The notes beneath the pieces were generated by a model, which saw only the letters and a list, made by a program, of their open reading frames with translations, was not told the DNA's origin and made no database searches. A DNA stretch of 46,096 nt from Candidatus Micrarchaeota archaeon. Its GTDB lineage: Archaea; Micrarchaeota; Micrarchaeia; Anstonellales; Anstonellaceae. Numbering within the stretch: position 1 is the first letter of the stretch; each line of letters starts with the position of its first letter. Below, one piece after another: positions 1,947 to 24,759 of this stretch. The position numbers and the translations under genes are program-made. The stretch covers positions 1 to 46,096 of the forward strand of contig CAZYTZ010000003.1 of NCBI GenBank assembly GCA_964650545.1, read 5' to 3'.

Positions 1947-2870
1947 GTGAGAGTGCTGCTGCAGTTCCCGGAAGGCCTCAAGCAGGAGGCGCTGCAGCAT
2001 GCCGCACGCCTCTCCTCGCAGGGGCACGAAGTGTTCCTTTCAGCATCAGCCTGCTATGGCGCGTGCGACCTGGCTCTTGACGAGGCGCGCCACATAAAGG
2101 CGCAAAAACTCATCCATTATGGGCATGCGGAATTCTCGCGCGTGCGCGCGCAGGGCCTGAAGGTAGAATACATTCCCTACTTTGCAGTGCTTGACTGGAA
2201 GGCAACAGGCGCCATGCTGAAAAAAGCAGCCGCGCTTCTCCACGAATCAGGCGCAAAAAAGCTCGCCCTTGTTTTCCCAGTGCAGCACGTGCGCAACGCA
2301 AGCAGGGTGAAGGAGCATTTGAAGTCAGAAGGCTTTTCGGTATTGATTGGCAAGGGCGGCAGCCACGCTGCGCACGCTGGGCAGGTGCTTGGCTGCGACG
2401 GAAGCGCTGCCTTCTCGGGCAAGGCGCGCAGCGCAGACACCGTAGTCTACTTTGGCGGCGGCAAATTCCACCCCACAGGCATTTCCGCAGGAAAGCCAGT
2501 ATTGTGCGCAGACCCGCACCTTCAGGACGCTTATTGGATAACTGATGAAATCGCAAAGCAGGAAAAGCGCAAGAACGGCGCGCTTTTGGCAGCCTCGCAG
2601 GCGCGCACATTCGGCATCCTCCTCTCAACAAAGAACGGCCAGCTCAACCTTCCCGGCGCAAGGCTTGCAAAAAAGCTTCTGGAAAAGAAAGGCAGGCGCG
2701 CGGAAATACTGGTGGCAAACGAATTCTCCCCGCTCGCGCTTGCAAACTTCCTGAAGTTCGGCGCCTACATAAACACCGCCTGCCCGCGCATTTCCGACGA
2801 CCGCGAGGCATTTGGCAAGCCGGTTGTGAATGTGGCTGACATAAAGCGGCTGCTTGAGATAATGGTGTGA
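1947..2870 (+). CDS. dph2: Diphthamide biosynthesis protein Dph2
   Basis: LQFPEGLK, GACDL, QVLGCD, TACPR (three Fe-S cysteines). Confidence 0.92.
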   Translation: MRVLLQFPEGLKQEALQHAARLSSQGHEVFLSASACYGACDLALDEARHIKAQKLIHYGHAEFSRVRAQGLKVEYIPYFAVLDWKATGAMLKKAAALLHESGAKKLALVFPVQHVRNASRVKEHLKSEGFSVLIGKGGSHAAHAGQVLGCDGSAAFSGKARSADTVVYFGGGKFHPTGISAGKPVLCADPHLQDAYWITDEIAKQEKRKNGALLAASQARTFGILLSTKNGQLNLPGARLAKKLLEKKGRRAEILVANEFSPLALANFLKFGAYINTACPRISDDREAFGKPVVNVADIKRLLEIMV

Positions 2871-2923
2871 CTGGGAAGATGAATTTAAATGTTATTACCA
2901 ATAGATTAATGCTGGTGGTTTAA

Positions 2924-3328
2924 ATGATGGTTTTCCAAGTAACATTCATTAACAAGAAGACTGTGCCAACAAAAACTGCAGTGGAAGCCACATCAACATC
3001 ACTGAAGAATGACATTGAGACGCTTTGCAGCTCGAAAAAAGCCGATGGCAGCGCATACAATAAAGTCCTACATACGCTTCTTGATGCCCTTAAAAACAGC
3101 AGCCGGGCTGATATGCAAGAGGTGCCCAAGCGGGCAAGGCTGGCTTATTGGACAATTGCCAATTTTGCGAGAACCGAGAAGCCCGACGAATACATAGCAA
3201 ACATAACGACCGGGGGGGCAGTCAGCGACAACAGGATTCGCTTCCGGGTGAACGGCGACAATACTTTCACTGCGCTTGCTTTGACTGAGATGGACTTTCA
3301 GGGAGGCGCAGTCAACAGGAAAAAGTAG
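2924..3328 (+). CDS. Hypothetical orphan protein
   Basis: 134-aa ORF filling the gap, AT-rich upstream region with GGTGG; no family recognised. Confidence 0.6.
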   Translation: MMVFQVTFINKKTVPTKTAVEATSTSLKNDIETLCSSKKADGSAYNKVLHTLLDALKNSSRADMQEVPKRARLAYWTIANFARTEKPDEYIANITTGGAVSDNRIRFRVNGDNTFTALALTEMDFQGGAVNRKK

Positions 3329-3384
3329 CTATCCGCTATTCTTTTATTCCTTCCTCGGCACAGAATGCGCGGGAGGTCATTTTC

Positions 3385-4407
3385 ATGGCTATCATCATAG
3401 GCTTGACAGGCGAGAACTGCGCGGGAAAGGGCACGGTTGCCGACTACCTGGTGCAAAAGGGATTCTACTACTACTCACTGTCTGACGCCATACGCGAGGA
3501 ATTGGCAAACGAGGGCAAGGAAATCACGCGCGAGGCGCTTATTGCAAAGGGCAACGAGCTTCGCCGCAACTTCGGCGCTGATGTGCTTGCAAAAAGGACG
3601 ATTGCCAAGCTGCTGCCTGACAGGAACTATGTCATTGACTCCATCCGCAACCCTGCTGAAGCAAAGGCGCTTTTGGCAACCGGCAAGACCACGCTTGTCT
3701 ACATCACAGCGTCGCAAAAGATGCGCTTTGAGCGCATGAAGCAGCGCAGGCGCGAGGGCGACCCGAAGAGCTTCGAGGCATTCCAGATAATCGACAAGGT
3801 GGAAATGGCAAGCAAGGACGAGTTCGGCCAGTCGCTTTCCGAAGTGTTCGTGCTTTCCACGAAAAAGGTGGAAAACGAAACAAGCTTCAAGGAGCTTTAT
3901 GCAGCGGCCGACGAGCTTCTCTCAGGAATTTCAGCAGACTTCAAGTCAAAGCGGCCTGGCTGGGACGAGTACTTCATGTCAATCGCGCGCGTGGTTGCAA
4001 CCAGGAGCAACTGCCTCAAGCGCCATGTGGCTGCAGTGATTGTGAAGGACAAGAGGATAATCTCAACGGGCTACAACGGTACGCCGCGCGGCATCAAGAA
4101 CTGCGACGAGGGCGGCTGCCCGCGCTGCAACTCCTTTGCTGACAGCGGCACCAAGCTTGACGAGTGCGTGTGCTCGCACGGCGAGGAGAACGCAATCGTG
4201 CAGGCATCCTACCACGGCATTAGCATTAAGGACGCAACAATCTACACCACGTTCTCACCCTGCCTGTTCTGCACCAAGCTCATCATAAACTCAGGCATGC
4301 GCGAGGTAGTATACAACGCCGACTACCCAATGGGGGAAGTGCCGTTCTCGCTTCTGCGCGAGGCAGGGATAATCGTAAGGCAGGTCAAGATGAAGAACGA
4401 GAAGTAA
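3385..4407 (+). CDS. P-loop nucleotide kinase-like domain fused to dCMP/dCTP deaminase
   Basis: N-terminal GLTGENCAGKGT and IDSIRNPAE; C-terminal RP.WDEYFM, TGYNGTP, HGEEN and PCLFC zinc-deaminase motifs; GGAGGT SD. Confidence 0.88.
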   Translation: MAIIIGLTGENCAGKGTVADYLVQKGFYYYSLSDAIREELANEGKEITREALIAKGNELRRNFGADVLAKRTIAKLLPDRNYVIDSIRNPAEAKALLATGKTTLVYITASQKMRFERMKQRRREGDPKSFEAFQIIDKVEMASKDEFGQSLSEVFVLSTKKVENETSFKELYAAADELLSGISADFKSKRPGWDEYFMSIARVVATRSNCLKRHVAAVIVKDKRIISTGYNGTPRGIKNCDEGGCPRCNSFADSGTKLDECVCSHGEENAIVQASYHGISIKDATIYTTFSPCLFCTKLIINSGMREVVYNADYPMGEVPFSLLREAGIIVRQVKMKNEK

Positions 4408-4410
4408 ATA

Positions 4411-5067
4411 TTAAAGCGTCTTAACCAGAAAATTGAGCACGTCCAAAAGCACGGTGGCGAAAAGCAGCCCGCCGGTTGCTACCAGCACAATGGTCGGCAC
4501 GAGCCAGGTGGCAACCGACTTTGGCTTCCCGAACCTGTAAAGCGCGCTGATGGAAAGCGTGAGCAGGTAAAAGCCATAAAGCATAACCGAGATTGCGACC
4601 GTATCGCCTGCAAGCTGCAGTATGCCTGTTACTGCAAGCGGGAATGACATTTCCGCCATAATCGACTTTAGCAGCATGACTGCAATGTTGATTACAATTG
4701 TAAAGACAAAAGTGGGCGCGGCTGCAAGGCTCACCATGTAATACAGCCTGCCAAGCGTTGCCTTGCCTCCAAGCATCCTTGCCACAACGTATGCCATGAG
4801 CGTGAACGGGAACGAGAATATGAATATGCCAATCGCGGTGGCAGCCAGGCTGAAAAGCACGGCAGCAAGGTAGATGGGCTCAAAGTTGCCTGATAGTGCA
4901 AGCACAAGAAGGGCAAGCGGCACGTAAGCCATCAAAATCGGCGTGCCGAAATTCTCAAGCCCGTCTGTGAAGCCAAGCTCCTTTCTCTTCGCATGCTCTG
5001 ATGAGGTTTTGCCTGGCGCAAGCATCATATTATTCCACGAAGTAGTGCGCTCCTTGAATTTGAGCAT
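4411..5067 (-). CDS. Yip1-like multi-pass membrane protein
   Basis: About five hydrophobic segments and A..LGGKA pattern of prokaryotic Yip1 domains. Confidence 0.65.
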   Translation of the reverse strand: MLKFKERTTSWNNMMLAPGKTSSEHAKRKELGFTDGLENFGTPILMAYVPLALLVLALSGNFEPIYLAAVLFSLAATAIGIFIFSFPFTLMAYVVARMLGGKATLGRLYYMVSLAAAPTFVFTIVINIAVMLLKSIMAEMSFPLAVTGILQLAGDTVAISVMLYGFYLLTLSISALYRFGKPKSVATWLVPTIVLVATGGLLFATVLLDVLNFLVKTL

Positions 5068-6871: not shown

Positions 6872-7316
6872 AAACGGCTTCAAACTCCCATTGCTCCTTC
6901 AGGGTTTTGAGTATGACCTGCGTGTTGGTATGCTCAATGTGGGGAAGCGCGAGGAAGGACTTTATGGTGCGCGAGAACGACTCGCGGCTTTTCGCAGCGA
7001 TTATCGCAACGCTGTCATACTCGCCAGTCACGTCGTAAACCGCCACCACTCCGCGCAGGCGGCTGAGCTTCTCCTGCGCCTCAAGCAATTTCCCTTTTGC
7101 TATCTTTATCTGCACCATTCCCATGAATTCATAGCCCAGCTTTCCCAGGTCAACATTTGCGCCGTAGCCTTTCACCACGCCGGTCTTTTCCAGCTTCTGC
7201 ATGCGCGAAATGAGGGTGGTAGGGTGCAGCTTCAGGCGGGAGGCGATTTCACGGTAGGAGCCGCGGCAGTTCTTCAGTAACTCGTGCAATATTTCCTCGT
7301 CTGTTTTGTCAATCAT
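6870..7316 (-). CDS. Lrp/AsnC family transcriptional regulator
   Basis: N-terminal HTH (IDKTDEEIL..SYREIA) and RAM domain (VYDVTGEYD). Confidence 0.93.
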   Translation of the reverse strand: MIDKTDEEILHELLKNCRGSYREIASRLKLHPTTLISRMQKLEKTGVVKGYGANVDLGKLGYEFMGMVQIKIAKGKLLEAQEKLSRLRGVVAVYDVTGEYDSVAIIAAKSRESFSRTIKSFLALPHIEHTNTQVILKTLKEQWEFEAV

Positions 7317-7336
7317 TTGTCCACCCTTTGGCTATT

Positions 7337-7397
7337 TTTGAGCAATTTATCTATACATTTGCTCAAAGCTTTTAAAAAGGCTTTGATTATTCAAAGC
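7337..7397. promoter_or_regulatory. Two inverted repeats in the divergent lrp/glnA promoter region
   Basis: tttgagcaa-N13-ttgctcaaa (7337-7367) and gctttga-N4-tcaaagc (7380-7397); TATA-like tatatataa nearby. Confidence 0.5.
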
Positions 7398-7463
7398 GAA
7401 AAACCACCGTGAGGTATATATATAACCTATTGCCTACTCCCGCCATCAAAAGGGGTAGATCAA

Positions 7464-8816
7464 ATGCTTGGCGAGATTTCAAAGGAAGAGAAAAACAGGA
7501 TAATTGCGGATGCAAAGGAAAAGGGCGTGCGCTTCGTGGACCTGGAGTTCGTGGACATTTTGGGCACGCCGAAAATGTGCGAGGTGACAGTGGAGAGATT
7601 GAACGATGTGCTGGAAGACGGCACGTGGTTTGACGGTTCCTCTGTCGAGGGCTTTTCGCGCATTGCCGAGTCCGACATGTTTTTGGTGCCAGACACTCAG
7701 ACATGGGCAGTGCTTCCCTGGACTGGCAACAAGACCGCGCGCCTGATTTGCAACGTCTACGTGGACGAGAAAACACCATTTGTGGGCGACCCGCGCTCAG
7801 TCCTCAAGCGCCAGCTTGCGCGCGCCAAGGCAATGGGCTTTGACTACAAGGTGGGGCCAGAGCTTGAGTTTTTCCTTTTCAAGGGCGGCAACGGCGACTT
7901 AGACCCTGAAAAGATGCAGGTGCACGACAATGCAGGCTACTTTGACCTCTCAACGCGCGACGCGGCTTTTGACCTGCGCCAGGAAATAGTCCCTGCGCTT
8001 GAGGCAATGGGGTTGAAAATCGAGCGCTCCCACCACGAAGTCGCGCAGGGGCAGCACGAAATCGGCTTTTTCTACGGCGACGCGCTTTCCATTGCCGACT
8101 CGGTGATGACTTACAAAACAACGGTGAAAACCCTTAGCAAAAAATACGGGCTTTACGCATCTTTCATGCCAAAGCCTGTGTTTGGCATAAACGGCTCGGG
8201 AATGCATGTGCACCAGTCGCTGTGGAAGGATGGCGTGAATGCTTTTTACGATGCATCAGACCAATACCAGATCTCATCAATGGCAAAGCACTTCATCGCA
8301 GGCATAATGGAGCACGCCCGCGCGCTTGCCGCCATCACCAACCCCACTGTCAACTCGTACAAGCGCCTCGTGCCTGGCTACGAGGCGCCGGTCTACATCT
8401 GCTGGGGCAGGATAAACCGCTCCGCGCTTATCCGGATACCCCGCGCGCTTGGCGGCAGCGGCAAAGGCGCAAGAATAGAGTGCCGCTTCCCTGACCCATC
8501 GTGCAACCCCTATCTTGCATTTGCGGCAATGCTTGCGGCTGGATTGGACGGGATTGAAAGAAAGCTCGAGGCACCAAAGCCCATCGAGGAGCGCGTGTAT
8601 GGCTTTGAGGAGGACAAGCGCAAGTTATTGGGCATTGGCACTCTTCCCGAATCGCTTGAACAGGCAAGCCACGAGCTATCGCAGGACAAGGTGGTGCGCG
8701 AGTCAATGGGAGAGCACGTCAGCCAGATGCTTCTGCGGGTTCAGAATGACGACTGGAGGGCCTACTGCACGCAGGTCACCAAATGGGAAAAGGAAAGGTA
8801 CTTCGGAGTGCTTTGA
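7464..8816 (+). CDS. glnA: Glutamine synthetase type I
   Basis: FDGSS, GPELEFF, HHEVA.GQHE, FMPKP, NGSGMH, NSYKRLVPGYEAP, NRSALIR, E.R.PDPS.NPYL. Confidence 0.97.
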   Translation: MLGEISKEEKNRIIADAKEKGVRFVDLEFVDILGTPKMCEVTVERLNDVLEDGTWFDGSSVEGFSRIAESDMFLVPDTQTWAVLPWTGNKTARLICNVYVDEKTPFVGDPRSVLKRQLARAKAMGFDYKVGPELEFFLFKGGNGDLDPEKMQVHDNAGYFDLSTRDAAFDLRQEIVPALEAMGLKIERSHHEVAQGQHEIGFFYGDALSIADSVMTYKTTVKTLSKKYGLYASFMPKPVFGINGSGMHVHQSLWKDGVNAFYDASDQYQISSMAKHFIAGIMEHARALAAITNPTVNSYKRLVPGYEAPVYICWGRINRSALIRIPRALGGSGKGARIECRFPDPSCNPYLAFAAMLAAGLDGIERKLEAPKPIEERVYGFEEDKRKLLGIGTLPESLEQASHELSQDKVVRESMGEHVSQMLLRVQNDDWRAYCTQVTKWEKERYFGVL

Positions 8817-8839
8817 AGGCTGTCGCACATGCGTTTCTG

Positions 8840-9547
8840 CTATTGCTTTGCCATCTGTTCCAGCGCCTTGGCAATGGCAAAGAACACCTGCGCGGTTGCT
8901 TCGTTAAGGCCTTTTTCGATTTCCCTTAATTTCTCAATGCCCAGCTCAGCAAGAGTTACCGGGAAAACCTCCACCGCGACATTGGCTTCCCCGTTGTTAT
9001 CTGCCGTGTGGGAGAATATATTATCGCCGCCGCTCGTAACAAAGGTAAGCGGGGCAATCTTGTGGTTTATGTAGATGTTCAGATTCACATCATTCTCCTG
9101 CAGGATTATTTTTTTGCTGTCCAGAGGATGCTTGCCGATGCCATACTGTGTCTCAAAATTTCCTACGTGCAAATCTGAAATTTCGGCAGGCACATGAATG
9201 CCATTTCTGGCAGAAGGGTCAGGGATCCAATTCGCGTCAATCAATATGGCGATATTTTTCTCCCCACCTCTCCCCCCATGTCCCCTCAGGAGATAATCCC
9301 TCACATATCCCTTCGGGACAGCCAGCAGATTTTTCTTGTCTACAATAAGCCCGTTGCCTTTTGGCCTGCCTCCTTCGAGCGCCACCATAGTGGTGCCTGT
9401 CCAGTAAGAATCTATCAATGGAAGCAGCTTCAAATTGGGGGAGAGGATGGATGGAAGCTGCCCTCCAAGCATTGTAGCTATCCGTTTGGCAGTCGGCCAA
9501 TTTTTCTTTATTCCGAGATTGACTATGGCAGTTCCCCGGGAATTCAT
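8840..9547 (-). CDS. Hypothetical orphan protein
   Basis: GGAGGGAGGTGG SD before ATG 9547; visibly more AT-rich codons than neighbours; no family recognised. Confidence 0.65.
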   Translation of the reverse strand: MNSRGTAIVNLGIKKNWPTAKRIATMLGGQLPSILSPNLKLLPLIDSYWTGTTMVALEGGRPKGNGLIVDKKNLLAVPKGYVRDYLLRGHGGRGGEKNIAILIDANWIPDPSARNGIHVPAEISDLHVGNFETQYGIGKHPLDSKKIILQENDVNLNIYINHKIAPLTFVTSGGDNIFSHTADNNGEANVAVEVFPVTLAELGIEKLREIEKGLNEATAQVFFAIAKALEQMAKQ

Positions 9548-17042: not shown

Positions 17043-17543
17043 TCAGTCATCGCCGTGGCTGGTAAGCTCCCTTTCCAGCTTGTCAAGCTGGCGGCTTACG
17101 CGCTCCATGGTCTGGCGTATGCCTGCAATCTCGAACTTGATGGACTGCAGGTACACCTTGTCAAACACTATGGTGGGCTTTGGAAGCACCACTTCGTGCG
17201 CAGGTGCTGCTGGCGCGCTTTCATTCTTTATGAAGTTCACGCTGTCCTCTATCTTGCGCGACACCACTGGCGCAATGAACTCTGCCTCGCGCTCCTTCTT
17301 TGGCGCCTTGCCCTTTGGCTTGGCTGCCTTTGAAGGCTTGGCAGGTGCCTTTTTCTCCTGGGCCTTCATATGGCTCCTTGCAGCCTTCACCCACTTTTTC
17401 ACGTTGGCAAATGAGGCGAACTTGTTGGTTTTTGTCGCCTTGTAAACATCCCCGCGTATTTCCGTGAGCTTTCCGGCGTTTATTGGCTGGTCGCCGTAGC
17501 GCCTCAGCCTCGCAGCCACTATTTTGACTACTTTTTCGTCCAT
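17043..17543 (-). CDS. Hypothetical protein with Lys/Ala/Pro-rich linker and C-terminal coiled coil
   Basis: 166-aa ORF, GGTGGT SD, host-like codon usage. Confidence 0.7.
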   Translation of the reverse strand: MDEKVVKIVAARLRRYGDQPINAGKLTEIRGDVYKATKTNKFASFANVKKWVKAARSHMKAQEKKAPAKPSKAAKPKGKAPKKEREAEFIAPVVSRKIEDSVNFIKNESAPAAPAHEVVLPKPTIVFDKVYLQSIKFEIAGIRQTMERVSRQLDKLERELTSHGDD

Positions 17544-17617
17544 TTTACCACCTGCTTCAGAACCATAATTAGGATTGCCTGCCTTTCATGCCTTCAAAGT
17601 TTATATTACGCACGGTT

Positions 17618-18280
17618 TTAGCCTTCCCTTCCGGGCTTGTACCTTGTGGAAAGCAGCTTCCGCAGATCAGCAGCCTTTTTCTTGCCTATTTTGCCCACTT
17701 GCTGCAACTCGCTTTCAGGCGCGCTTGCCACGTTTTCCACGGTGTCAAAGTACTTTAGCAGAGCCGAAGCAAGCGTGGGGCCGACGTTGGGGAGCGCCTC
17801 CACCACCGCGCGCTGCTGGTCTGCCATTGTCCTTGCCTTGCGCTTGGCATAGACTGGCTGCGCGCGCGACTTTGCCACCTGCTCGTGGTGAGCAAGGGAA
17901 TAGAGCATCTCCGCGGTGGCAGACGGCGAGCGTGTGAAGAAAAGCGCACAGCCAAAGTCGGCAATAAGCGAGGCGTAAGCGCCAAGCAGCGCTTTTCTTG
18001 AAAGCCGGCTCTCAGCCTGCGCTTCACCCTCAACAATCACCACCACGCGCGGCACTGCGGCGCACAAATCCGACACCTGGGAAAATAGCCTGCCGTCGAA
18101 AATTGAGGACTCAAAGTCAGCCCTGGTCTTCCTTTCCGCAACCAGCCTGTCTGACAAAAGATAGTCGCCTATCTCAAGCTGGCGCACCTCTATTTCCGCG
18201 CCCTGCGCCTCAAGCGCGTCGCAAACAGAGTCAGGCTCGCGCACGTCAGCGACGATTTTTGGCTGTTTCTTCTCAGGCAC
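17618..18280 (-). CDS. xpf: XPF/ERCC4 structure-specific endonuclease (short form without helicase)
   Basis: ADVRE, GDY, ERKT..DF..SI.DGRL..Q, tandem HhH (LPNVGP, VGKIG). Confidence 0.9.
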   Translation of the reverse strand: MPEKKQPKIVADVREPDSVCDALEAQGAEIEVRQLEIGDYLLSDRLVAERKTRADFESSIFDGRLFSQVSDLCAAVPRVVVIVEGEAQAESRLSRKALLGAYASLIADFGCALFFTRSPSATAEMLYSLAHHEQVAKSRAQPVYAKRKARTMADQQRAVVEALPNVGPTLASALLKYFDTVENVASAPESELQQVGKIGKKKAADLRKLLSTRYKPGREG

Positions 18281-18288
18281 GCTTTCAC

Positions 18289-18981
18289 CTACTCCCGCAC
18301 GTGCTTGCGCACATACTCCTCAATCTCTCCAAATCCTATTGCGCAGCCAGAGTACTTGAGCTTGTAAAGCGAAGCCTCAACAGCGTCGCGCTCAAGCCCC
18401 TTGTAATCGGAAAAATAGCCCTTTTCATAGGCAAGAAGCGCAAGCTCGCCTGAGCGGAAGAACCTCAGCCTCTTGGTTGCGCGGGAAAAAAGCGACAAGT
18501 TCTTCTCATTGATGTCAACCGGCTTTCCCAGCTCGTGCTCGACGTGCTGCCTCAGCGACTCAGGATCCTCGACAAGCATGCGGCATGTTCTCTCATCCAT
18601 GAGCAAATTGTCCACGCCAATCTCAAGCGCAAGGGAAATCACGTCCGACTCCCCTCTGTGCAGCAGCCTTATGGGCGTGCCGCCTGAGAAAAACAGGTTG
18701 TTTGCAGCAAACATCAGCTCCTCTGCCTTCTTTTCCTGCTTTCCTTCCACGACGTCAATCATGCCCTCGGCAATGGCCCGCTTCAGGCGTATGGCGTGAA
18801 GCGCGTAGTTTTTCATGTGCAGCGGCCGCTCTACGCACTCTTTCTCCACCGAGGGGGGGATTATGAAGCGGCCGCTGTACTTTTTCTTCAGGAAATAAAT
18901 GACATGGACAAAGCACGAGTCCGTAAGCGAGATTAGCGAGGAAGCATCGCACACGATGGATTGCCCTGATAGCTTTGCCAC
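18289..18981 (-). CDS. PIN-domain protein (COG2405/DUF3368-like)
   Basis: CDASSLI, PPSVEKE, LHRGESDVISLA and LLMDERT PIN acidic motifs. Confidence 0.78.
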   Translation of the reverse strand: MAKLSGQSIVCDASSLISLTDSCFVHVIYFLKKKYSGRFIIPPSVEKECVERPLHMKNYALHAIRLKRAIAEGMIDVVEGKQEKKAEELMFAANNLFFSGGTPIRLLHRGESDVISLALEIGVDNLLMDERTCRMLVEDPESLRQHVEHELGKPVDINEKNLSLFSRATKRLRFFRSGELALLAYEKGYFSDYKGLERDAVEASLYKLKYSGCAIGFGEIEEYVRKHVRE

Positions 18982-18996
18982 AAAATCACAACGTTG

Positions 18997-19548
18997 TCAC
19001 GTGAATATCTCGCGCAATTCCTTCATTCTCCCCTCTATGCTTTTCTTCTCGTGCAATCTATCAAACATCATGGTCTGCCCTGCGTAAAGCATGAGCTCGC
19101 GCTTGTCAGAGCCGGTTATCTCCGACGCATTGCCAAGCGATATTCCCTGCGCGTAGAGGGTGGAGGCGATTTTCAGGCGCGCTTTTTGCAGTATGCCCTT
19201 CACAAACCGCCTGTCCTGGTCATCCACCCTTTCCATTGCCGACAGTATCCTGCCCTGCGTCAGGACGAGTGTATCATATTCTGCAGCTTTTGCCTGCGCC
19301 TCGCAGCTGCGCAGCAGATTGTTCACTGCAACAAGCGAGCTTCTCGCTTTTTCATGCTTGAGGTAGCGGGGCTTGGAAAGTATTTTGGCAAGGACATATG
19401 TCACAAGCGCATAGTTGTACGTCGGCTGCTGGAAGCGCAGCGCAGTCTCTGCAATGCACCGTTCGTTGATTTTCCTCATGGCGCGCACGTCGTGGTTGCG
19501 CAGTGCCGAGCCTATCAGCACCGCGGTTTCTGAGAGCGACAATGCCAT
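18997..19548 (-). CDS. Helical protein with C-terminal UPF0175-like HTH
   Basis: ASTLYAQGISLGNASEITG resembles the UPF0175 LY..G.ISLG.AAEL.G motif; directly upstream of the PIN gene. Confidence 0.6.
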   Translation of the reverse strand: MALSLSETAVLIGSALRNHDVRAMRKINERCIAETALRFQQPTYNYALVTYVLAKILSKPRYLKHEKARSSLVAVNNLLRSCEAQAKAAEYDTLVLTQGRILSAMERVDDQDRRFVKGILQKARLKIASTLYAQGISLGNASEITGSDKRELMLYAGQTMMFDRLHEKKSIEGRMKELREIFT

Positions 19549-19628
19549 GCAAATGCACCATTTTGTTTCAAAAAAAGAGTTTTCGCGTCATTTTTTTGCC
19601 CCTTTTTCACGCCGGAGAAGCGTAGGGC

Positions 19629-19679
19629 TTTATATACATTATCATGATAAGGTCATGACAACAACAAAGCAATGTCATG
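19629..19679. promoter_or_regulatory. TATA box with clustered TCATGA/TGTCA palindromes (candidate operator)
   Basis: tttatata 19629-36; ttatcatgataa 19639-50; gtcatgac 19652-59; catgaca-N12-tgtcatg 19654-79. Confidence 0.55.
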
Positions 19680-19738
19680 TGCCTGTCAAGATTGGCAAGC
19701 GAATGAAAGGAACGCAATTGTTCCAGGCAGATGATGAC

Positions 19739-20284
19739 ATGAAACGCGAGGAAAATTATAAAGGTATCGATGATGCGCGTTCTGAGCGTCAGAACGCATC
19801 GCGCAACTCCGGCGGAGTTGGCGAAGGGTCGGGAAAGCAGGCAATCGAAGAGCTAAGACACGAGGTGCTCTCGCCGCTGGAGAACGACATTGCAAAGCTT
19901 CGCGACCCTGTAGTGCTTGCGGCGCTCATGCACACTGCGGCAACAGAGCGGGAAAACACCAACAGGCTGCTCAAAACGCTGATAGAGAAACTGGACATGA
20001 AGTTCACAGAAGTGGAAGACAAGATAAATGCCCTCGAGGCGGCGCAAAAGGCGGCGCAGAAGCCGACCGCCGCGCCCCGCGGGGATGAAGTGCTCCTCCC
20101 GTCTGTGGACGAGGGGATATTGAAGTTCGTGCGCGAGAAGCGACACGTGTCCGCCGAGCAAGTTCGCAGGCGCTTTGGCTACAAGGGAAGAAACGCGGCA
20201 TCCGCGCGCCTATCCCGCATGTATGACCTGGGCCTGCTTGAGAAAAAGCAGGTTGGCAGGGCAGTATTGTACTGCGTCAGGTAA
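19739..20284 (+). CDS. Coiled-coil plus C-terminal winged-HTH protein
   Basis: Heptad region then ILKFV..SAEQV..NAASARLSRMYDLGLLEKKQVGRAVLY wHTH; start uncertain (19655, 19703 or 19739). Confidence 0.75.
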   Translation: MKREENYKGIDDARSERQNASRNSGGVGEGSGKQAIEELRHEVLSPLENDIAKLRDPVVLAALMHTAATERENTNRLLKTLIEKLDMKFTEVEDKINALEAAQKAAQKPTAAPRGDEVLLPSVDEGILKFVREKRHVSAEQVRRRFGYKGRNAASARLSRMYDLGLLEKKQVGRAVLYCVR

Positions 20285-20297
20285 TTCACAAATCACG

Positions 20298-20476
20298 CTT
20301 GCTAAGAAGCAAGGCGACCAATTGTCCGGATTCTTGCAAATCCGGACCAAAAATGAGCGGCGGCGTCTCAGGCGCTCACGCGCCCGCATTCGCCGCTTTC
20401 ATATTTTTGGAGAACTCATGGGGGCGCCGTTATTCACCTCCCACACCCTACTTTTTTGCGCCCCCGTTCTCCAAAA
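20298..20476. ncRNA. Candidate structured RNA or palindromic element (four consecutive hairpins)
   Basis: Perfect stems cttgct/agcaag, gtccggatt/aatccggac, agcggcg/cgccgct, ttttggagaac/gttctccaaaa with gggggcgc/gcgccccc. Confidence 0.4.
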
Positions 20477-20532
20477 TCCATGCCCGTCAGCGCGCGCCTC
20501 AAATTATAAATCTTGCCCGAGAAGTTGGCAGC

Positions 20533-21432
20533 ATGGACGACCGCACAGTAATCATCTCCAGCCAGGAACTTGTGGACCACACCGTCCTTACGAGGAAAAA
20601 AAACGAGCTTGCCTTCAAGCGCGACGTTCTTCTCCGCTCAGGCGCAAAAGCCGGTGACCTGCACCTGCGAACTGTTGAGGGCGAGCTTGCGCTGGTGGGC
20701 GACAAGCTCTCCCCATTGGAGGGCAAGCTGTCAGAGCTTGACATGATAACAGTATTGCCGCACCGCAAGGAAATCGGCGAGTACACGTCGCAGATAAACC
20801 AGTTCTCGCGCCCCGAGCTTGACATCGCCGTGAAAAACAAGAGCGGCACTGCTTATGACCTCATGCGCAAGCGCGCGTTTCTGGTGAAAGGGAATTTTGA
20901 GCGCCGCGAGGACATTGCGCGGCTCACAATCATGCTCAACAGCATGCCGCGCAAGGACGCGGAGTCCATCCGCTCACTCATAGAAGAAGGGGCAGGGGAC
21001 GACGCTGATGTCTCGTTTTTGCCGAAGGAAAAGCAGCAAGAGCTCCTCAATCTCTCCTCGCGCATCGGCAGGCAGTGCTGCGTGTTTGCCGGGAGCTTTT
21101 CCCTGGATAAAAAAAAAGCTGAATCTTCCGAGCTGAAGCCAACTGACGAGGTCTCGCGCACAATTGCCAACGGCAGGTCAGTGTGGGTCGACGCCCCAAA
21201 GGCATTTGAGTTTGACGCGAACGAAAAGGAACTGGCATTGCTCCTTGCAAAAATGCAGGCGAAAAACGCGGAAAAGCAGGCGCGCAGCCTGAATGAGGAA
21301 GAGCTGGTCTACCTCGACAAGCTGCAGGCCGACTATTTGGCAGCGCGCAACCGCCGTGCCACGCTCGTGAAGGGGATGGAGCTTGGCGAAACCGCGAAGG
21401 TGTACAGGAAAAGGCTGCATGGAGAGTTCTAG
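20533..21432 (+). CDS. Hypothetical helical protein with host-like codon usage
   Basis: TATA ttataaa at 20504-10 puts the probable start at ATG 20533. Confidence 0.75.
   Translation: MDDRTVIISSQELVDHTVLTRKKNELAFKRDVLLRSGAKAGDLHLRTVEGELALVGDKLSPLEGKLSELDMITVLPHRKEIGEYTSQINQFSRPELDIAVKNKSGTAYDLMRKRAFLVKGNFERREDIARLTIMLNSMPRKDAESIRSLIEEGAGDDADVSFLPKEKQQELLNLSSRIGRQCCVFAGSFSLDKKKAESSELKPTDEVSRTIANGRSVWVDAPKAFEFDANEKELALLLAKMQAKNAEKQARSLNEEELVYLDKLQADYLAARNRRATLVKGMELGETAKVYRKRLHGEF
21381..21432 (+). repeat. Gene 3' end, repeat copy 1
   Basis: 42/52 ungapped identity to 22589-22640. Confidence 0.9.
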
Positions 21433-21488
21433 TTTTCCCAGGCAGTTATGGTAGCAGTTTTTATATCTTTGTGGATATATTTTTTAGC

Positions 21489-22580
21489 ATGTTGACGTTT
21501 ACACGCAAGCATGCGCCACACTTCTCTCCTGAAAAAACCGCAAGGAATAAGCTTCGCAATATCTTTCGAAGCAAACATGTGCTTTACGAGGACAGGCTGA
21601 TTTGCGTCGCATCTTACGTATCCACAACTACCAACCTTCCGGCGGGTCACCGCGGCATCACGATTGTCGAGATTGCAGACCTTCATCTCCGGGAGCCAAT
21701 GTACAAGGAGCCTTCCAAGCCCTACTCCCCGGACAGGCTGGATAAGCTTCTTGGCTGGCGCGGCAATGACGGTAAAAACCGGCTTGACAGACTGCTTGGA
21801 AGGAATGGCAAGCCGGAACTTCGCAACACCAACCACTTTGACAGGCTCATAAAAAAACAGCTTGAGCATACCATCGCAATGCTGCAAAAGCTCCCGGCGC
21901 TTCTGCAGGAAAATGGCAAATCCCCCGACGTCGTGCTTCTTACCGGGGATTTTATCTCCCGCAACTCAAAGGACATCACGCCGCAAGCGCAGGTCGCACT
22001 CTCCAATCTTTTCACCGCTGCGTCCATCCGAGCATACGTCCTTGGCAATACCGACTATGCGAAGGGCAGCACTCTGGAAGAGCGTGCACGCGAAACCGGA
22101 AATATAATTCAAAAGATTGATTCCGCGGGGTTTGCCAACCTCACAAATGCGCTTTTGCAGGTGAAGGTGGGCGGTGCATCTGTCAGCGTAGTCGGCGTGG
22201 ATGACTACAACAAAGGCAAGCCGCGCCAGCCCGCAATTCCCAGCACAAGCGAACCAAACCTTGTGCTTGTAGCACTCCACAACCTCGACGCACTCACAAA
22301 GGAATGCCTCAAGAATGCATCTGCCATTTTCTCGGGCCACACGCACGGGGGTGAGTTCCGTCTGCTCTTCGGTCTTTTTACCGGGTTTCCCCTCCTGCGC
22401 AAGAAAGGAACATACAAGAACCTCAACGGGCAGACAAACGAGCTAAAGATTTTCCCTGAAGGGCATTTTCCCCTCTCGTTGATGTCATGGGGCGTTGGCA
22501 GGTACCTTTTCTGGCGCACCGGGGTGGCCAAGGGGCACATAAACGTCGTAACGCTCGTCCCTGAGGGGCAGCGCCCATAA
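21489..22580 (+). CDS. Divergent calcineurin-like metallophosphoesterase (YkuE-like) orphan
   Basis: ADLH, LTGDF, LGNTD (usually GNHD), GVDD, LHN, SGHTHGG; TATA tttatat at 21460-66. Confidence 0.8.
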   Translation: MLTFTRKHAPHFSPEKTARNKLRNIFRSKHVLYEDRLICVASYVSTTTNLPAGHRGITIVEIADLHLREPMYKEPSKPYSPDRLDKLLGWRGNDGKNRLDRLLGRNGKPELRNTNHFDRLIKKQLEHTIAMLQKLPALLQENGKSPDVVLLTGDFISRNSKDITPQAQVALSNLFTAASIRAYVLGNTDYAKGSTLEERARETGNIIQKIDSAGFANLTNALLQVKVGGASVSVVGVDDYNKGKPRQPAIPSTSEPNLVLVALHNLDALTKECLKNASAIFSGHTHGGEFRLLFGLFTGFPLLRKKGTYKNLNGQTNELKIFPEGHFPLSLMSWGVGRYLFWRTGVAKGHINVVTLVPEGQRP

Positions 22581-22588
22581 AATTGCGG

Positions 22589-22640
22589 GCTTGCCGAAAC
22601 CGTGAAAGTCTACAAGAAAAGGCCACCGGCAGAGTTCTAG
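22589..22640 (+). pseudogene. Displaced degenerate copy of the 3' end of gene 20533-21432
   Basis: Translates LAETVKVYKKRPPAEF* versus LGETAKVYRKRLHGEF*; 42/52 nt identical, same TAG stop. Confidence 0.85.
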
Positions 22641-22714
22641 CTTTTGCCTCTCCACCTCTGCCATCTTTTTATAACCTTCGCAGCAGACTTTGCCTATCAG
22701 AAAGGGGTGTGAAA

Positions 22715-23524
22715 ATGGGCAAGCAGCTTTTTGCAGAGCCACTCGGGATCAAACCGCCAAGCAGGCAACAGAGGCTCCACCGCCGAATATGGTCAAGAGA
22801 GATTCTGCCTTTTTCTTCCCCTGAAAATGAGGGGCTTAACGCGATTGGTCGGCACCCGGGAAACAAGTGGCCACAGAAGGCATCGCTTTCCCGTGCTTTG
22901 GCAGCGCGCATGCTTACGGAAAAATACATGCAGGATTTCAATGCCCAGAAGAATTTCCTTACAAAAGAGGAAAAGGACAAACTTGCAGCAAAAACTGTGG
23001 GCGCTGCTTTCACCACCGTGTCATATTTCAATGAAGCTGCCCGGAGCGGCAGGTTTGCCGGCGCGCTTTTCAGGCAGGCAAGGGGCCGTGCATATTACGC
23101 GCTGTACAAGGCGTTTGCACACTGCCTTGGCACTCCTTTTGGGACGATGGAGCCGCTGGACGTTGCAATAAGGCTCGCCTCTCCCAAAGACAGGCAGGAA
23201 TGGCTCTTGGAGCGCGGAGCCATCTACTTCAGGCACTGGCAATACAATGAAGCCATTGCCGACTACGAACGTGCGCTTTCTATAAAAGGGGAGCTTGACA
23301 GCAGCGTGATTCGCCTTTTGCTTGGTGTGTGCCACGTGCAGTCGTGCAGTCTGCAAAAAGGAGCTTCAATCATTGAAGAGGCGTTTTCAGCCAAGTTAAA
23401 GGACAAAAAGATGGCGGGCGATGCATACCTGCCATTCCTAAAGGCGCTTCAAACATTGTCTGAGCGGGGCTTGACTGGAAAAGCCGAGGAACTGATGGCA
23501 AGATGGCATGGGTGGAAGCCCTGA
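22715..23524 (+). CDS. TPR-containing orphan protein
   Basis: LERGAIYF...QYNEAIADYERALSI TPR consensus; GGGGTG SD and tttttataa TATA upstream. Confidence 0.7.
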   Translation: MGKQLFAEPLGIKPPSRQQRLHRRIWSREILPFSSPENEGLNAIGRHPGNKWPQKASLSRALAARMLTEKYMQDFNAQKNFLTKEEKDKLAAKTVGAAFTTVSYFNEAARSGRFAGALFRQARGRAYYALYKAFAHCLGTPFGTMEPLDVAIRLASPKDRQEWLLERGAIYFRHWQYNEAIADYERALSIKGELDSSVIRLLLGVCHVQSCSLQKGASIIEEAFSAKLKDKKMAGDAYLPFLKALQTLSERGLTGKAEELMARWHGWKP

Positions 23525-23589
23525 TGCAAATGTTTGCACGCCGTTCCTCCGGGAAGGAACGTTTATAAACCCTTGTCTCAGTAATAGAG

Positions 23590-23814
23590 CCCACTTCTTC
23601 CTTTCTCAGAAAGGCAAGATGACACTCACTGCCCCGCCGTTGGATTGGAGCTTCGCTCCAATGCTGAAAAAATCGCCCGTGCGATTTTTCCATGGCACCG
23701 CGTAGTGAATCATTGCTGGCAGCATTGTTCGGCAAGCATCAAGTTAGATATTAGACAGGGATTTTGATCGCCGCCTCGCAAGAGGCGGTGATAATTTCCC
23801 AACGGGGAAATAAC
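23590..23814 (+). promoter_or_regulatory. Long structured 5' leader of the ribosomal protein operon
   Basis: TATA tttataaa 23562-69; multibranch stem 23619-23713 enclosing two hairpins; GCAA-tetraloop hairpin 23767-23792. Confidence 0.55.
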
Positions 23815-24759
23815 ATGGGAAAGAGAACAGCGCACAGGCACGGATCGATTGCATTCCGCCCCCGCAAGCGCGCGCTTTCGCAAGTGGCAACAGTGCGGTG
23901 CTGGCCGGAGCTATCCGACAAAAAGCTGTGCGGGTTTGCAGGCTACAAGGCAGGCATGACCCATATTACATATATAGATGACACCGAGTCGCCATCCAAG
24001 GGCAGCGAAGTGTACGCATCAACAACCGTGGTGGAGTGCCCGCCCATGACTATTTTTGGCGTGCGCGGGTACAAGAAAGGCCGCAATGTCCCCGACATGA
24101 TAACTCCTGATGAAAAAATCCTGAAGATGCTTGGAATTTCAAAGAAAAAGGATGGAAAGTTTTCTGCTTCTGATGTTGACGATGTTTTTGTTCTCGCTTT
24201 CACCCGCCCTGAAATGACCGGGATGGGAAAGAAAACCCCTGAGAGGATGGAAATCTCCGTTGGCGGCAAGGACATTGCCGAAAAGCTTGAGTACGCGCTA
24301 ACGCTCCTCGGAAAGGAAGTCAAGGCATCAGAGGTTTTCAAGCCAGGCGAATTCCTCGACGCAATCGCAATCACAAAAGGCAAGGGCTGGCAGGGAACTG
24401 TCAAGAAGTTCGGCACTGCGGTGCAGCGCCGCAAGGCAACAGGCAAGCGCAGGCACATCGGAACGCTTGGCGCCTGGAGCCCAGGCTATGTGATGTACAC
24501 AGTTCCAAGGCCCGGCCAGATGGGCTACCACAAGAGGACTGAGGTTAACAAGAGGATAATGAAGATGGGTGAAGCTGGCGAGATAAACCCGGCAGGCGGC
24601 TTCACGCACTATGGAGTGCTCAAGAACGAATACATATTGGTCAAAGGCTCGCTCGCAGGCCCGCAAAAGCGCCTGATCCGCTTCAGGCGCGCAGTGCGCA
24701 TAAGCGCAGCGCCCAAGGTGCCAGAGATAAAGTACGTTTCTATGGAGTCAAAGCAGTAA
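23815..24759 (+). CDS. rpl3: 50S ribosomal protein L3 (uL3)
   Basis: RHGSIAFRPRKRA, GYKAGMTH, TKGKGWQG, GQMGYHKRTE. Confidence 0.96.
   Translation: MGKRTAHRHGSIAFRPRKRALSQVATVRCWPELSDKKLCGFAGYKAGMTHITYIDDTESPSKGSEVYASTTVVECPPMTIFGVRGYKKGRNVPDMITPDEKILKMLGISKKKDGKFSASDVDDVFVLAFTRPEMTGMGKKTPERMEISVGGKDIAEKLEYALTLLGKEVKASEVFKPGEFLDAIAITKGKGWQGTVKKFGTAVQRRKATGKRRHIGTLGAWSPGYVMYTVPRPGQMGYHKRTEVNKRIMKMGEAGEINPAGGFTHYGVLKNEYILVKGSLAGPQKRLIRFRRAVRISAAPKVPEIKYVSMESKQ

Follow-up and report, generated by a model that had tools for sequence, protein, structure and literature searches.

In a 46,096-nucleotide (nt) stretch of DNA from a Candidatus Micrarchaeota archaeon (hereafter the window) we describe a single-gene insertion that replaced the end of the gene upstream of it. 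The window is contig C3 of a 1.22-Mb, 92-contig Micrarchaeota assembly (G000) that is 93% complete. Gene A (20533-21432, plus strand), an open reading frame (ORF) of 299 amino acids and a conserved Micrarchaeota gene of unknown function, is followed by an intact metallophosphoesterase gene (MPE; 21489-22580, plus strand, 363 amino acids), behind which the last 52 nt of gene A appear again. Comparison with relatives gives good support to the reading that this second copy is gene A's displaced original end and that the copy before the MPE now completes gene A. Displaced gene ends of the same kind recur at two housekeeping genes, LeuRS and DnaK, in this genome and in its relatives.

A direct-repeat search placed copy 1 at 21381-21436 (plus strand), where it forms the functional end of gene A (16 codons and TAG) with a T-run of 4 nt, and copy 2 at 22589-22644 (plus strand), outside credible genes. 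The copies make up an ungapped direct repeat of 56 nt, 80% identical and 1208 nt apart from start to start. The last 52 nt of gene A, which end in its TAG at 21430-21432, match copy 2 at 42 of 52 positions, the top ungapped match of this 52-mer elsewhere in the window; in shuffled windows (n=300) the best match averaged 27.5 and reached a maximum of 32. Copy 2 begins 8 nt past the MPE stop (22578-22580), retains the reading frame with its own TAG at 22638-22640, and a T-run stands behind both stops (TAG-TTTT and TAG-CTTTT). All of this agrees with a preliminary description of the window, which had reported the ungapped 42/52 recurrence 8 nt past the MPE stop, the kept frame and TAG, and the two T-runs. 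That description had also called several of the differences synonymous or conservative, which holds only in part: just two of the eight differing codons are synonymous, and the L/P and H/P exchanges are not conservative.

The tail-MPE-tail arrangement is not an assembly artefact, because contigs from other runs cover both junctions. These bridging contigs come from assemblies of three other samples, and the runs containing the stretch are metagenomes of lake water and freshwater. The left junction is spanned by independent contigs from X7 (21333-21610, 0 differences) and X5 (21139-21453), and the right junction by contigs from X3 (21377-23581, 0 differences), X5 (22019-23504) and X7 (22404-22642). 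No contig in four runs carried the 1208-nt skip of an excised or precisely empty form, which is uninformative since contigs drop rare variants.

The slot that received the insert lies between gene A and a conserved ribosomal operon, whose first gene encodes ribosomal protein L3 (23815-24759, plus strand) and bounds the slot on the right. Gene order is kept over 9 kb in the four closest relatives (G006, G003, G022 and G012), with the upstream genes and gene A on one side and L3-L4-L2 past the slot. With the window gene as query, tblastn found 77-83% matches to L3 behind the slot in all four, followed by L4 and L2; L3 and L4 are the names that we take to apply to these operon genes. From gene A to L3 the slot measures 2379 nt here, 1040 in G006, 1284 in G003, 1094 in G022 and 3645 in G012. 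Directly behind copy 2 lies a flank (22645-22714, plus strand) that carries the conserved promoter motif of a TPR-repeat gene, with a TATA-like box at 22666-22674. The TPR-repeat gene itself (22715-23524, plus strand), an older occupant of the slot, has weak TPR_2 and TPR_1 matches (E 6.7e-5 and 2.4e-4, below the Pfam cut-offs) and shares 36% identity over 128 amino acids with its positional counterpart in G006 (E 2e-20).

Two relatives show the slot without the insert. On contig C6 of G006 and in G018, a TATA-containing motif stands 24 nt past the stop of gene A and is nearly identical to the motif found 25 nt past copy 2 in the window, and copy 2 with its flank aligns with the gene A tail and flank of both genomes. 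In G006 the motif is followed by the TPR orthologue and then L3, with no MPE. Because the gene A tail of G006 and G018 runs straight into the flank and motif that here follow copy 2, the identification of copy 2 and its flank as gene A's displaced original end, with copy 1 now completing the gene, is well supported; by this alignment the added DNA would be 1208 nt holding copy 1's counterpart and the MPE. Other relatives carry other contents in the slot. G003 has the same motif 554 nt past the gene A stop, behind an extra minus-strand TPR ORF, G022 has a nucleotidyltransferase and a HepT-like RNase without a tail relic, and G012 has an 815-amino-acid TPR protein. The MPE is absent from the locus in all of the relatives' gene A loci read. 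The preliminary description had proposed a search for empty sites among orthologues and had held that a common arrangement in all relatives would speak against it; the empty sites in G006:C6 and G018, together with the native flank behind copy 2, bear out its view that an insertion displaced the native 3' end.

A co-occurring relative, R, is ~93% identical to the window over 21240-21402 and lacks both the MPE and TPR genes. Its joint runs from 21418 to 23552 with 36 other letters between (one contig each from runs X3 and X6), so that it skips both genes and rejoins the window at 23537-23552 (plus strand), and in R the sequence upstream of L3 follows the gene A stop within ~20 nt. By eye, part of the 36 letters matches 23537-23552, and R tracks copy 1 to 21418 and then resembles copy 2. 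Likewise by eye, the first 14 nt past the stop of copy 1 resemble the post-stop flank in R (12/14) and in G022.

Homologues of gene A carry the source names Candidatus Micrarchaeota or Micrarchaeia, and no Pfam, NCBIfam or PADLOC family matched it. It is present in 36 of 41 related genomes and is single-copy in this one. The tail of the gene varies among functional orthologues; copy 1 has H at a position occupied by P in the other 15 closest orthologues listed, and copy 2 has V in a TAKVY motif (the A being lost) that all 16 closest orthologues listed have kept. G006 has two full copies of gene A, on contigs C6 and C16, which are 80% and 78% identical to that of the window and each accompanied by the upstream neighbour; they are either two strains binned together or a real duplication. 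In more distant species of the genus (L011, L016, L018, L019 and L020) a tRNA-like sequence can be seen by eye within ~50-70 nt past the gene A stop. The 46-kb window holds no tRNA gene, and in this clade none stands behind gene A.

The inserted protein matches PF00149 (E 4.7e-7, 30.9 bits against a gathering cut-off of 21.5). Aligned with its two close homologues, residues D64/H66, G153/D154, G186/N187/D189, H264 and G283/H284/H286 are invariant, and we take them to be the metal-binding motifs DxH, GD, GNxD, H and GHxH. The protein resembles metallophosphoesterases of the YaeI/LpxG type in the PF00149 fold, the metal-binding motifs and weak model matches, and scores far under the equivalog cut-offs of those models (47 vs 188 bits; 38 vs 350). 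It is without a stretch of ~63 residues found in the two close homologues. Between the gene A stop and the MPE start lie 56 nt, which include a TATA-like box, TTTTTATAT (21458-21466, plus strand, read from the sequence), 23 nt upstream of the ATG; its position suggests that it may act as a promoter. The GC content of the MPE (0.538 vs 0.537 for the genome) and its tetranucleotide distance (16th percentile) equal the composition of the genome, as expected for a donor among relatives.

The preliminary description had termed the MPE an orphan, which is a fair name. The family call holds, and among 42 family genomes the gene is found at high identity in this genome only; at E up to 1e-5 it is found in 4 of 42, this one included, its relatives in the three other family genomes being 27-36% identical and at other loci. 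Among the 41 related genomes it was matched in three, two of them at 35-36% identity and at other loci. Only two close homologues were found among 5.8 billion proteins, 59% and 48% identical. A search for the donor with the MPE protein against GTDB genome contigs gave no confirmed locus, and in JGI metagenome contigs it gave one locus, L029, in a different context. On L029, a 367-kb metagenome contig, tandem MPE-family paralogues (7055-7858 and 8001-9197) stand behind a TPR-repeat gene and directly before SecY and adenylate kinase. A functional link between MPE and TPR genes was considered and dropped: the TPR protein beside the L029 pair is not specifically related to the TPR gene of the window (E 1.3).

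The insert consists of the putative promoter and the MPE gene exactly, with no gene fragments. A Pfam scan of 42 window ORFs found no integrase or transposase, and the insert holds none. These 42 (6 + 36) come from 57 non-nested window ORFs of at least 90 amino acids and leave out the 15 at 23.8-25.8 and 28.5-37.5 kb, within the ribosomal operon or beside it. Within this scope, and with a TATA-like box 23 nt before the ATG, the results support the earlier description of a single-gene cassette with its own TATA box and no mobility gene in the window. Genome-wide there is a single match to a PF00589 recombinase, on contig C7. Ends shared with other cassettes, as a transposon or a miniature inverted-repeat transposable element would have, are not present, the insert ends being unrepeated in the genome apart from chance matches of 12-19 nt. 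A transposon or insertion sequence was likewise rejected, since the scanned ORFs include no transposase family, the ends are unique in the genome and the repeat is 56 nt long. An integron cassette was set aside because there is no integrase nearby and none of the five inverted-repeat pairs reported for 19500-24500 lies at the cassette ends (no dedicated attC model was run), and an RNA-based explanation because the window has no tRNA and no Rfam family reached E < 0.1 in 20000-24000. The genome, 93% complete, has RadA, and no Ku was found in it. On contig C41 the RadA (Rad51 family) match is split into 2788-3387 and 4918-5040, ~1.5 kb apart within one 912-amino-acid open frame, which suggests that RadA carries an intein.

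The preliminary description had proposed a search of the genome for further copies of upstream 3' ends. We compared the last 52 nt of 3085 ORFs of at least 100 amino acids with 12 kb on either side, and compared each contig with itself (168 hits). Two further cases were found, on contigs C40 and C12. The three slots were then screened in relatives for a tail copy, defined as a match at 33 or more of the last 48 nt. The gene A slot has a tail copy in this genome only (25 loci read), the LeuRS slot in two genomes, this one and G003 (14 loci read), and the DnaK slot in three, this one, G003 and G006 (14 loci read). The five events at the three slots share one architecture, namely a conserved gene, its tail, a compact cassette, a tail relic and the native neighbour; the exception is at LeuRS, where a further ORF stands between the relic and Trm5.

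The LeuRS scar of this genome lies on contig C40 (L031; LeuRS at 88-2718), where a repeat of 82 nt (2646-2727 and 4097-4178) is 82% identical and has kept its TAG. Between the copies is an AAA_14 ATPase gene (2728-3912, minus strand) that matches the PADLOC candidate system PDC-S01, and six of the nine codons that differ between tail and relic do so synonymously. In G003 (L046, G003:C27) LeuRS is followed by a two-gene cassette containing HicA and then by a tail relic of ~45 nt, ~520 nt downstream of LeuRS. The same HicA cassette stands directly behind LeuRS in G012 (L034, G012:C14), 82% identical over 634 nt to that of G003 and without a relic. Empty sites, with Trm5 directly behind LeuRS, are present in 10 of 13 relatives.

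Behind DnaK, G003 (L048, G003:C34; relic 3634-3705) and G006 (L050, G006:C9; relic ~1300 nt past the stop) share a minus-strand gene of 386/387 amino acids, followed by the relic. The gene that comes after the relic in both is the gene that stands directly behind DnaK in G012. In this genome the DnaK scar on contig C12 (L032; 26945-27055 and 28226-28336) is a repeat of 111 nt, 95% identical, with copies 1281 nt apart. It comprises the last 17 codons of DnaK and ~60 nt downstream that contain a hairpin, and its second copy forms the 3' end of the next ORF, a predicted membrane protein of 381 amino acids and no known family. Because the non-coding half of the repeat is identical, this duplication or gene conversion is recent.

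Several other repeats in the genome were not taken as scars. The pairs on C43/C83, C5, C14, C17 and C1 look like paralogous genes. Exact 55-nt repeats 155 nt apart (C4, C5, C6, C10, C13, C17 and C22) resemble artefacts left at scaffold gaps by a k=55 assembly, and the pair on C17 stands at a run of N. A tandem repeat on C18 (~17400-19300), with a 631-nt period and exact copies, was not counted.

If the two ends at a scar had diverged as working alleles, their differences should be mostly synonymous. The LeuRS and DnaK tails are conserved in protein sequence, and selection on them is therefore visible. The ratio of nonsynonymous to synonymous differences per site (pN/pS) between tail and relic is 0.27 for LeuRS in this genome, 0.23 for LeuRS in G003, 0.03 and 0.02 for DnaK in G003 and G006, where synonymous sites are saturated (pS at least 1), and 0.41 for the young DnaK pair of this genome. 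Over LeuRS and DnaK, with G003 and G006 counted once, 9 of 27 differing codons are nonsynonymous against ~60% expected for one decaying copy (P ~0.005), and with gene A added the count is 15 of 35 (P 0.03). Because the LeuRS and DnaK copies differ mostly synonymously, the comparison favours divergence largely as functional alleles in different lineages that were then brought together. The positions of the repeats bear on how the copies were joined. They end 4 nt past the stop at gene A, 9 nt past it on C40 and ~1 nt past it in G003, as would be given by a join of alleles that share only the gene. At LeuRS, the repeat lengths of the two events, which hold different cargo, are 82 nt here and ~45 nt in G003, and such variation argues against a single fixed att site.

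At gene A itself the evidence reads differently. The ten differences between the copies fall 0/6/4 over the codon positions, and of the eight differing codons two are synonymous and six nonsynonymous (pN/pS 0.55). Measured against five outgroup tails (245 positions), copy 1 matches at 191 and copy 2 at 180; copy 1 has the ancestral state at six of eight polarisable sites, all in the left 37 nt, and copy 2 at two, just to the right, with two further sites ambiguous. By these counts copy 2 appears to be the more derived copy. A crossover within the repeat that joined a normal tail to a degenerate tail-like segment would sort the ancestral states to left and right in this way. The sorting rests on ~5 independent events and could be a chance outcome about one time in six. 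Decay of a local duplication would fit the gene A locus equally well. The preliminary description had interpreted the two ends as diverged alleles and had named a lack of codon-position bias as evidence to the contrary. That lack is what we see at gene A, where the selection test is weak because the tail varies among functional orthologues; the support for diverged alleles is indirect and comes from the LeuRS and DnaK loci.

The explanation that we prefer, on which our confidence is evenly balanced, is homology-anchored recombination with DNA of a relative, with no recombinase encoded by the element. The donor would have been a related Micrarchaeote with the MPE directly behind gene A. The MPE gene with its own promoter would have entered the variable slot between gene A and the L3 operon, with the joint 52 nt before the gene A stop, through one crossover in or near the gene A tail made by the host RadA. 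The incoming DNA would have brought its own last codons of gene A, stop and T-run, which became copy 1 and now complete the gene, and the original end, copy 2, would have been pushed 1208 nt downstream, where it persists as a non-coding relic on the native flank with the TPR promoter. The other end may have been joined illegitimately, that is by homology-facilitated illegitimate recombination, or the whole may have been taken in as a small circle through a single crossover (Campbell type). Both this precise route and a difference between the copies already on arrival are probable. Recombination by the host is favoured because the repeats run to the stop codon or slightly past it, their lengths vary within one gene, neither a recombinase nor shared ends were found, RadA is present and Ku was not found.

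Several observations weigh against this explanation. The MPE adjoins gene A in none of the 41 relatives and in none of 41 other family genomes, a thin sampling, and the only close homologue with a readable context, that on L029 (48%), sits upstream of SecY and not near gene A. A breakpoint test on the gene A protein gave no mosaic attributable to this genome: sliding identity and a maximum chi-square test against 15 homologues placed a break near residue 213 (uncorrected P 6e-4), and pairwise matrices show that the outlier is homologue P0069, not this genome. Between the gene A copies the differences are not biased by codon position (0/6/4; pN/pS 0.55), with copy 2 the further removed from the ancestral state. 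The right edges of the cassettes are neat (8 nt past the MPE stop, ~5 nt past HicA), which random illegitimate joints would not produce, and in open-access papers and preprints we found no report of homology-facilitated illegitimate recombination in DPANN archaea. Moreover, between the DnaK relics of G003 and G006 five codons differ synonymously and one nonsynonymously. Both relics sit in an open frame of 23 codons in which the C-terminal peptide of DnaK is kept, suggesting selection on a supposedly dead relic, possibly as a micro-ORF with a TTG or GTG start. The relics may thus be under selection themselves, which weakens the argument for allele divergence drawn from LeuRS and DnaK.

A serious rival at the gene A locus, which we regard as rather unlikely overall, is that the duplication arose in place. 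The MPE would have been captured at a break in the gene A tail and ~56 nt of target duplicated during repair, by a staggered cut with fill-in or by template switching; the copies would have been identical at first, copy 2 decaying neutrally thereafter and copy 1 staying under weak selection. This agrees with the absence of a third-position excess (0/6/4) and with a pN/pS of 0.55, near the ~0.5-0.6 to be expected when one copy is constrained and the other free. It agrees as well with the more derived state of copy 2 (180 vs 191 of 245 matches; two vs six polarisable sites) and its loss of the A in the otherwise invariant TAKVY, and the young DnaK repeat on C12 (95%, 111 nt) demonstrates that this genome can produce nearly identical duplicates of a tail. 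Yet copy 1 matches copy 2 no better (39/49) than it does the tails from other species (38-40/49 in four of five), and it is the functional copy 1 that has a two-base change of a conserved proline retained by copy 2. The sister events at LeuRS and DnaK are biased towards synonymous differences, Ku was not found, and we know of no case in which target duplications of 45-115 nt are a product of prokaryotic break repair or transposition.

Less probable still is a remnant of an integrase-type element, a virus or plasmid whose att site mimicked the 3' end of gene A and which was later reduced to one gene, or was moved by a recombinase acting in trans. Direct repeats of 40-110 nt are the usual att-repeat size of archaeal integrative elements. 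The architecture matches that of the e14 prophage as far as the accessible account of it goes (PMC13626634), and mobile elements are often left unbinned, in a genome that is itself 93% complete. Against such a remnant stand the lack of an integrase in the insert and the scanned window ORFs, the single tyrosine recombinase of the genome, the content of the insert (promoter and gene exactly, no gene fragments), a longest identical run between the copies of 10 nt, and the two LeuRS insertions, which differ in repeat boundaries and cargo; to account for the five events, several element families would have to be assumed, each cut to a tidy cassette of one or two genes. Finally, the MPE could be an old resident and the repeat unrelated to it, through chance similarity, a two-strain assembly chimera or a partial duplication of the gene A end that served some other purpose, for example as a terminator. 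Contigs do break near the repeat elsewhere (one from X3 starts at 21377 and one from X6 ends at 21418), and the assembly has k-mer-type artefacts, the exact 55-nt repeats 155 nt apart around N runs. This last account is nonetheless very improbable and largely refuted by the 42/52 match against a maximum of 32 in 300 shuffles, by contigs of other samples that bridge both junctions without differences, by the orthology of the flank behind copy 2 with the gene A flank in G006 and G018, and by the gene A loci read in relatives, none of which has the MPE.

The scar recalls known systems in part. Displacement of Rhs C-termini was reportedly described by Jackson et al. 2009. At loci of the type VI secretion system (T6SS)/Rhs type, displaced 3' parts are attributed to homology-facilitated illegitimate recombination, a process documented in transformable bacteria, in the accessible text of Kirchberger et al. 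2017 (PMC5361080). The likeness of the Rhs, contact-dependent inhibition (CDI) and T6SS loci, as that text presents them, lies in a homology anchor within a conserved upstream gene, an old 3' part kept downstream as an orphan, the absence of an integrase and repeated events that build arrays (PMC5361080). As in such loci, the old 3' part is here retained beside its old neighbour (copy 2 with native flank, promoter and TPR gene), and relatives have undisturbed or alternative arrangements (G006:C6 and G018 empty; G003, G022 and G012 with other cargo); a donor lineage with the module behind the anchor gene was not found in the genomes searched (0/41 + 0/41). Those systems are bacterial polymorphic toxin genes in which a toxin tip and an immunity gene are displaced, whereas here the anchors are archaeal housekeeping genes (gene A, LeuRS and DnaK), only 45-115 nt are displaced and the cargo has no relation to the anchor.

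In E. coli, icd extends into the prophage e14 and a C-terminal icdC pseudogene lies at the far junction, according to the accessible part of PMC13626634. From the same part, e14 (and phage 21) at icd resembles the present case in the insertion within the 3' end of a housekeeping gene, the completion of the gene by the element-side copy, the retention of the displaced end and the few substitutions by which the ends differ (PMC13626634). Here too a tail repeat stands at both junctions and the upstream copy completes the gene. In contrast, the prophage e14 spans 15 kb, encodes its own site-specific recombinase and is excised upon SOS induction, and the present insert is 1.2 kb long, has one gene and contains no recombinase; nor is there a fixed att core, as judged at LeuRS (82 vs ~45 nt) and not at gene A. 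The islands of dusA-targeting integrases, in the portion of PMC4482086 at hand, also integrate in a protein-coding gene and rebuild the interrupted end, and differ in targeting the 5' end, in a dedicated integrase family and in the large size of the islands. In open-access papers and preprints, searched by title and start of abstract, we found no description of such scars at DPANN housekeeping genes.

Taken alone, the gene A scar is tidy, well documented and ordinary; its recurrence at housekeeping genes of a DPANN lineage, with no mobility gene, is of more interest. DPANN archaea have tiny genomes, few recognisable mobile elements and widely varying accessory content, and the way in which they take up genes is poorly understood. 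We tentatively propose, as a possibility that we still doubt, that accessory and defence genes reach Micrarchaeota, and perhaps other DPANN, without a mobility gene, as cassettes linked to the last 50-100 nt of an anchor gene that host recombination places in the same slot of relatives, the old tail being left as a scar. Some tails may be reused: the amino acids encoded by the DnaK relic are the same from species to species, and here the relic supplies the C-terminus of the inserted protein. The cargo, a candidate defence ATPase, a HicA-containing cassette of toxin-antitoxin type and an orphan phosphoesterase, along with the nucleotidyltransferase and HepT-like RNase in the gene A slot of G022 (no relic), suggests that this route feeds defence islets. 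Scars of this kind are dated and polarised footprints of single gene gains, recording the position of the joint, the incoming DNA and the prior state. If the pattern is general, short displaced tails would offer a genome-wide marker with which to count and order gene gains in uncultured archaea and to test host recombination as their sole driver.

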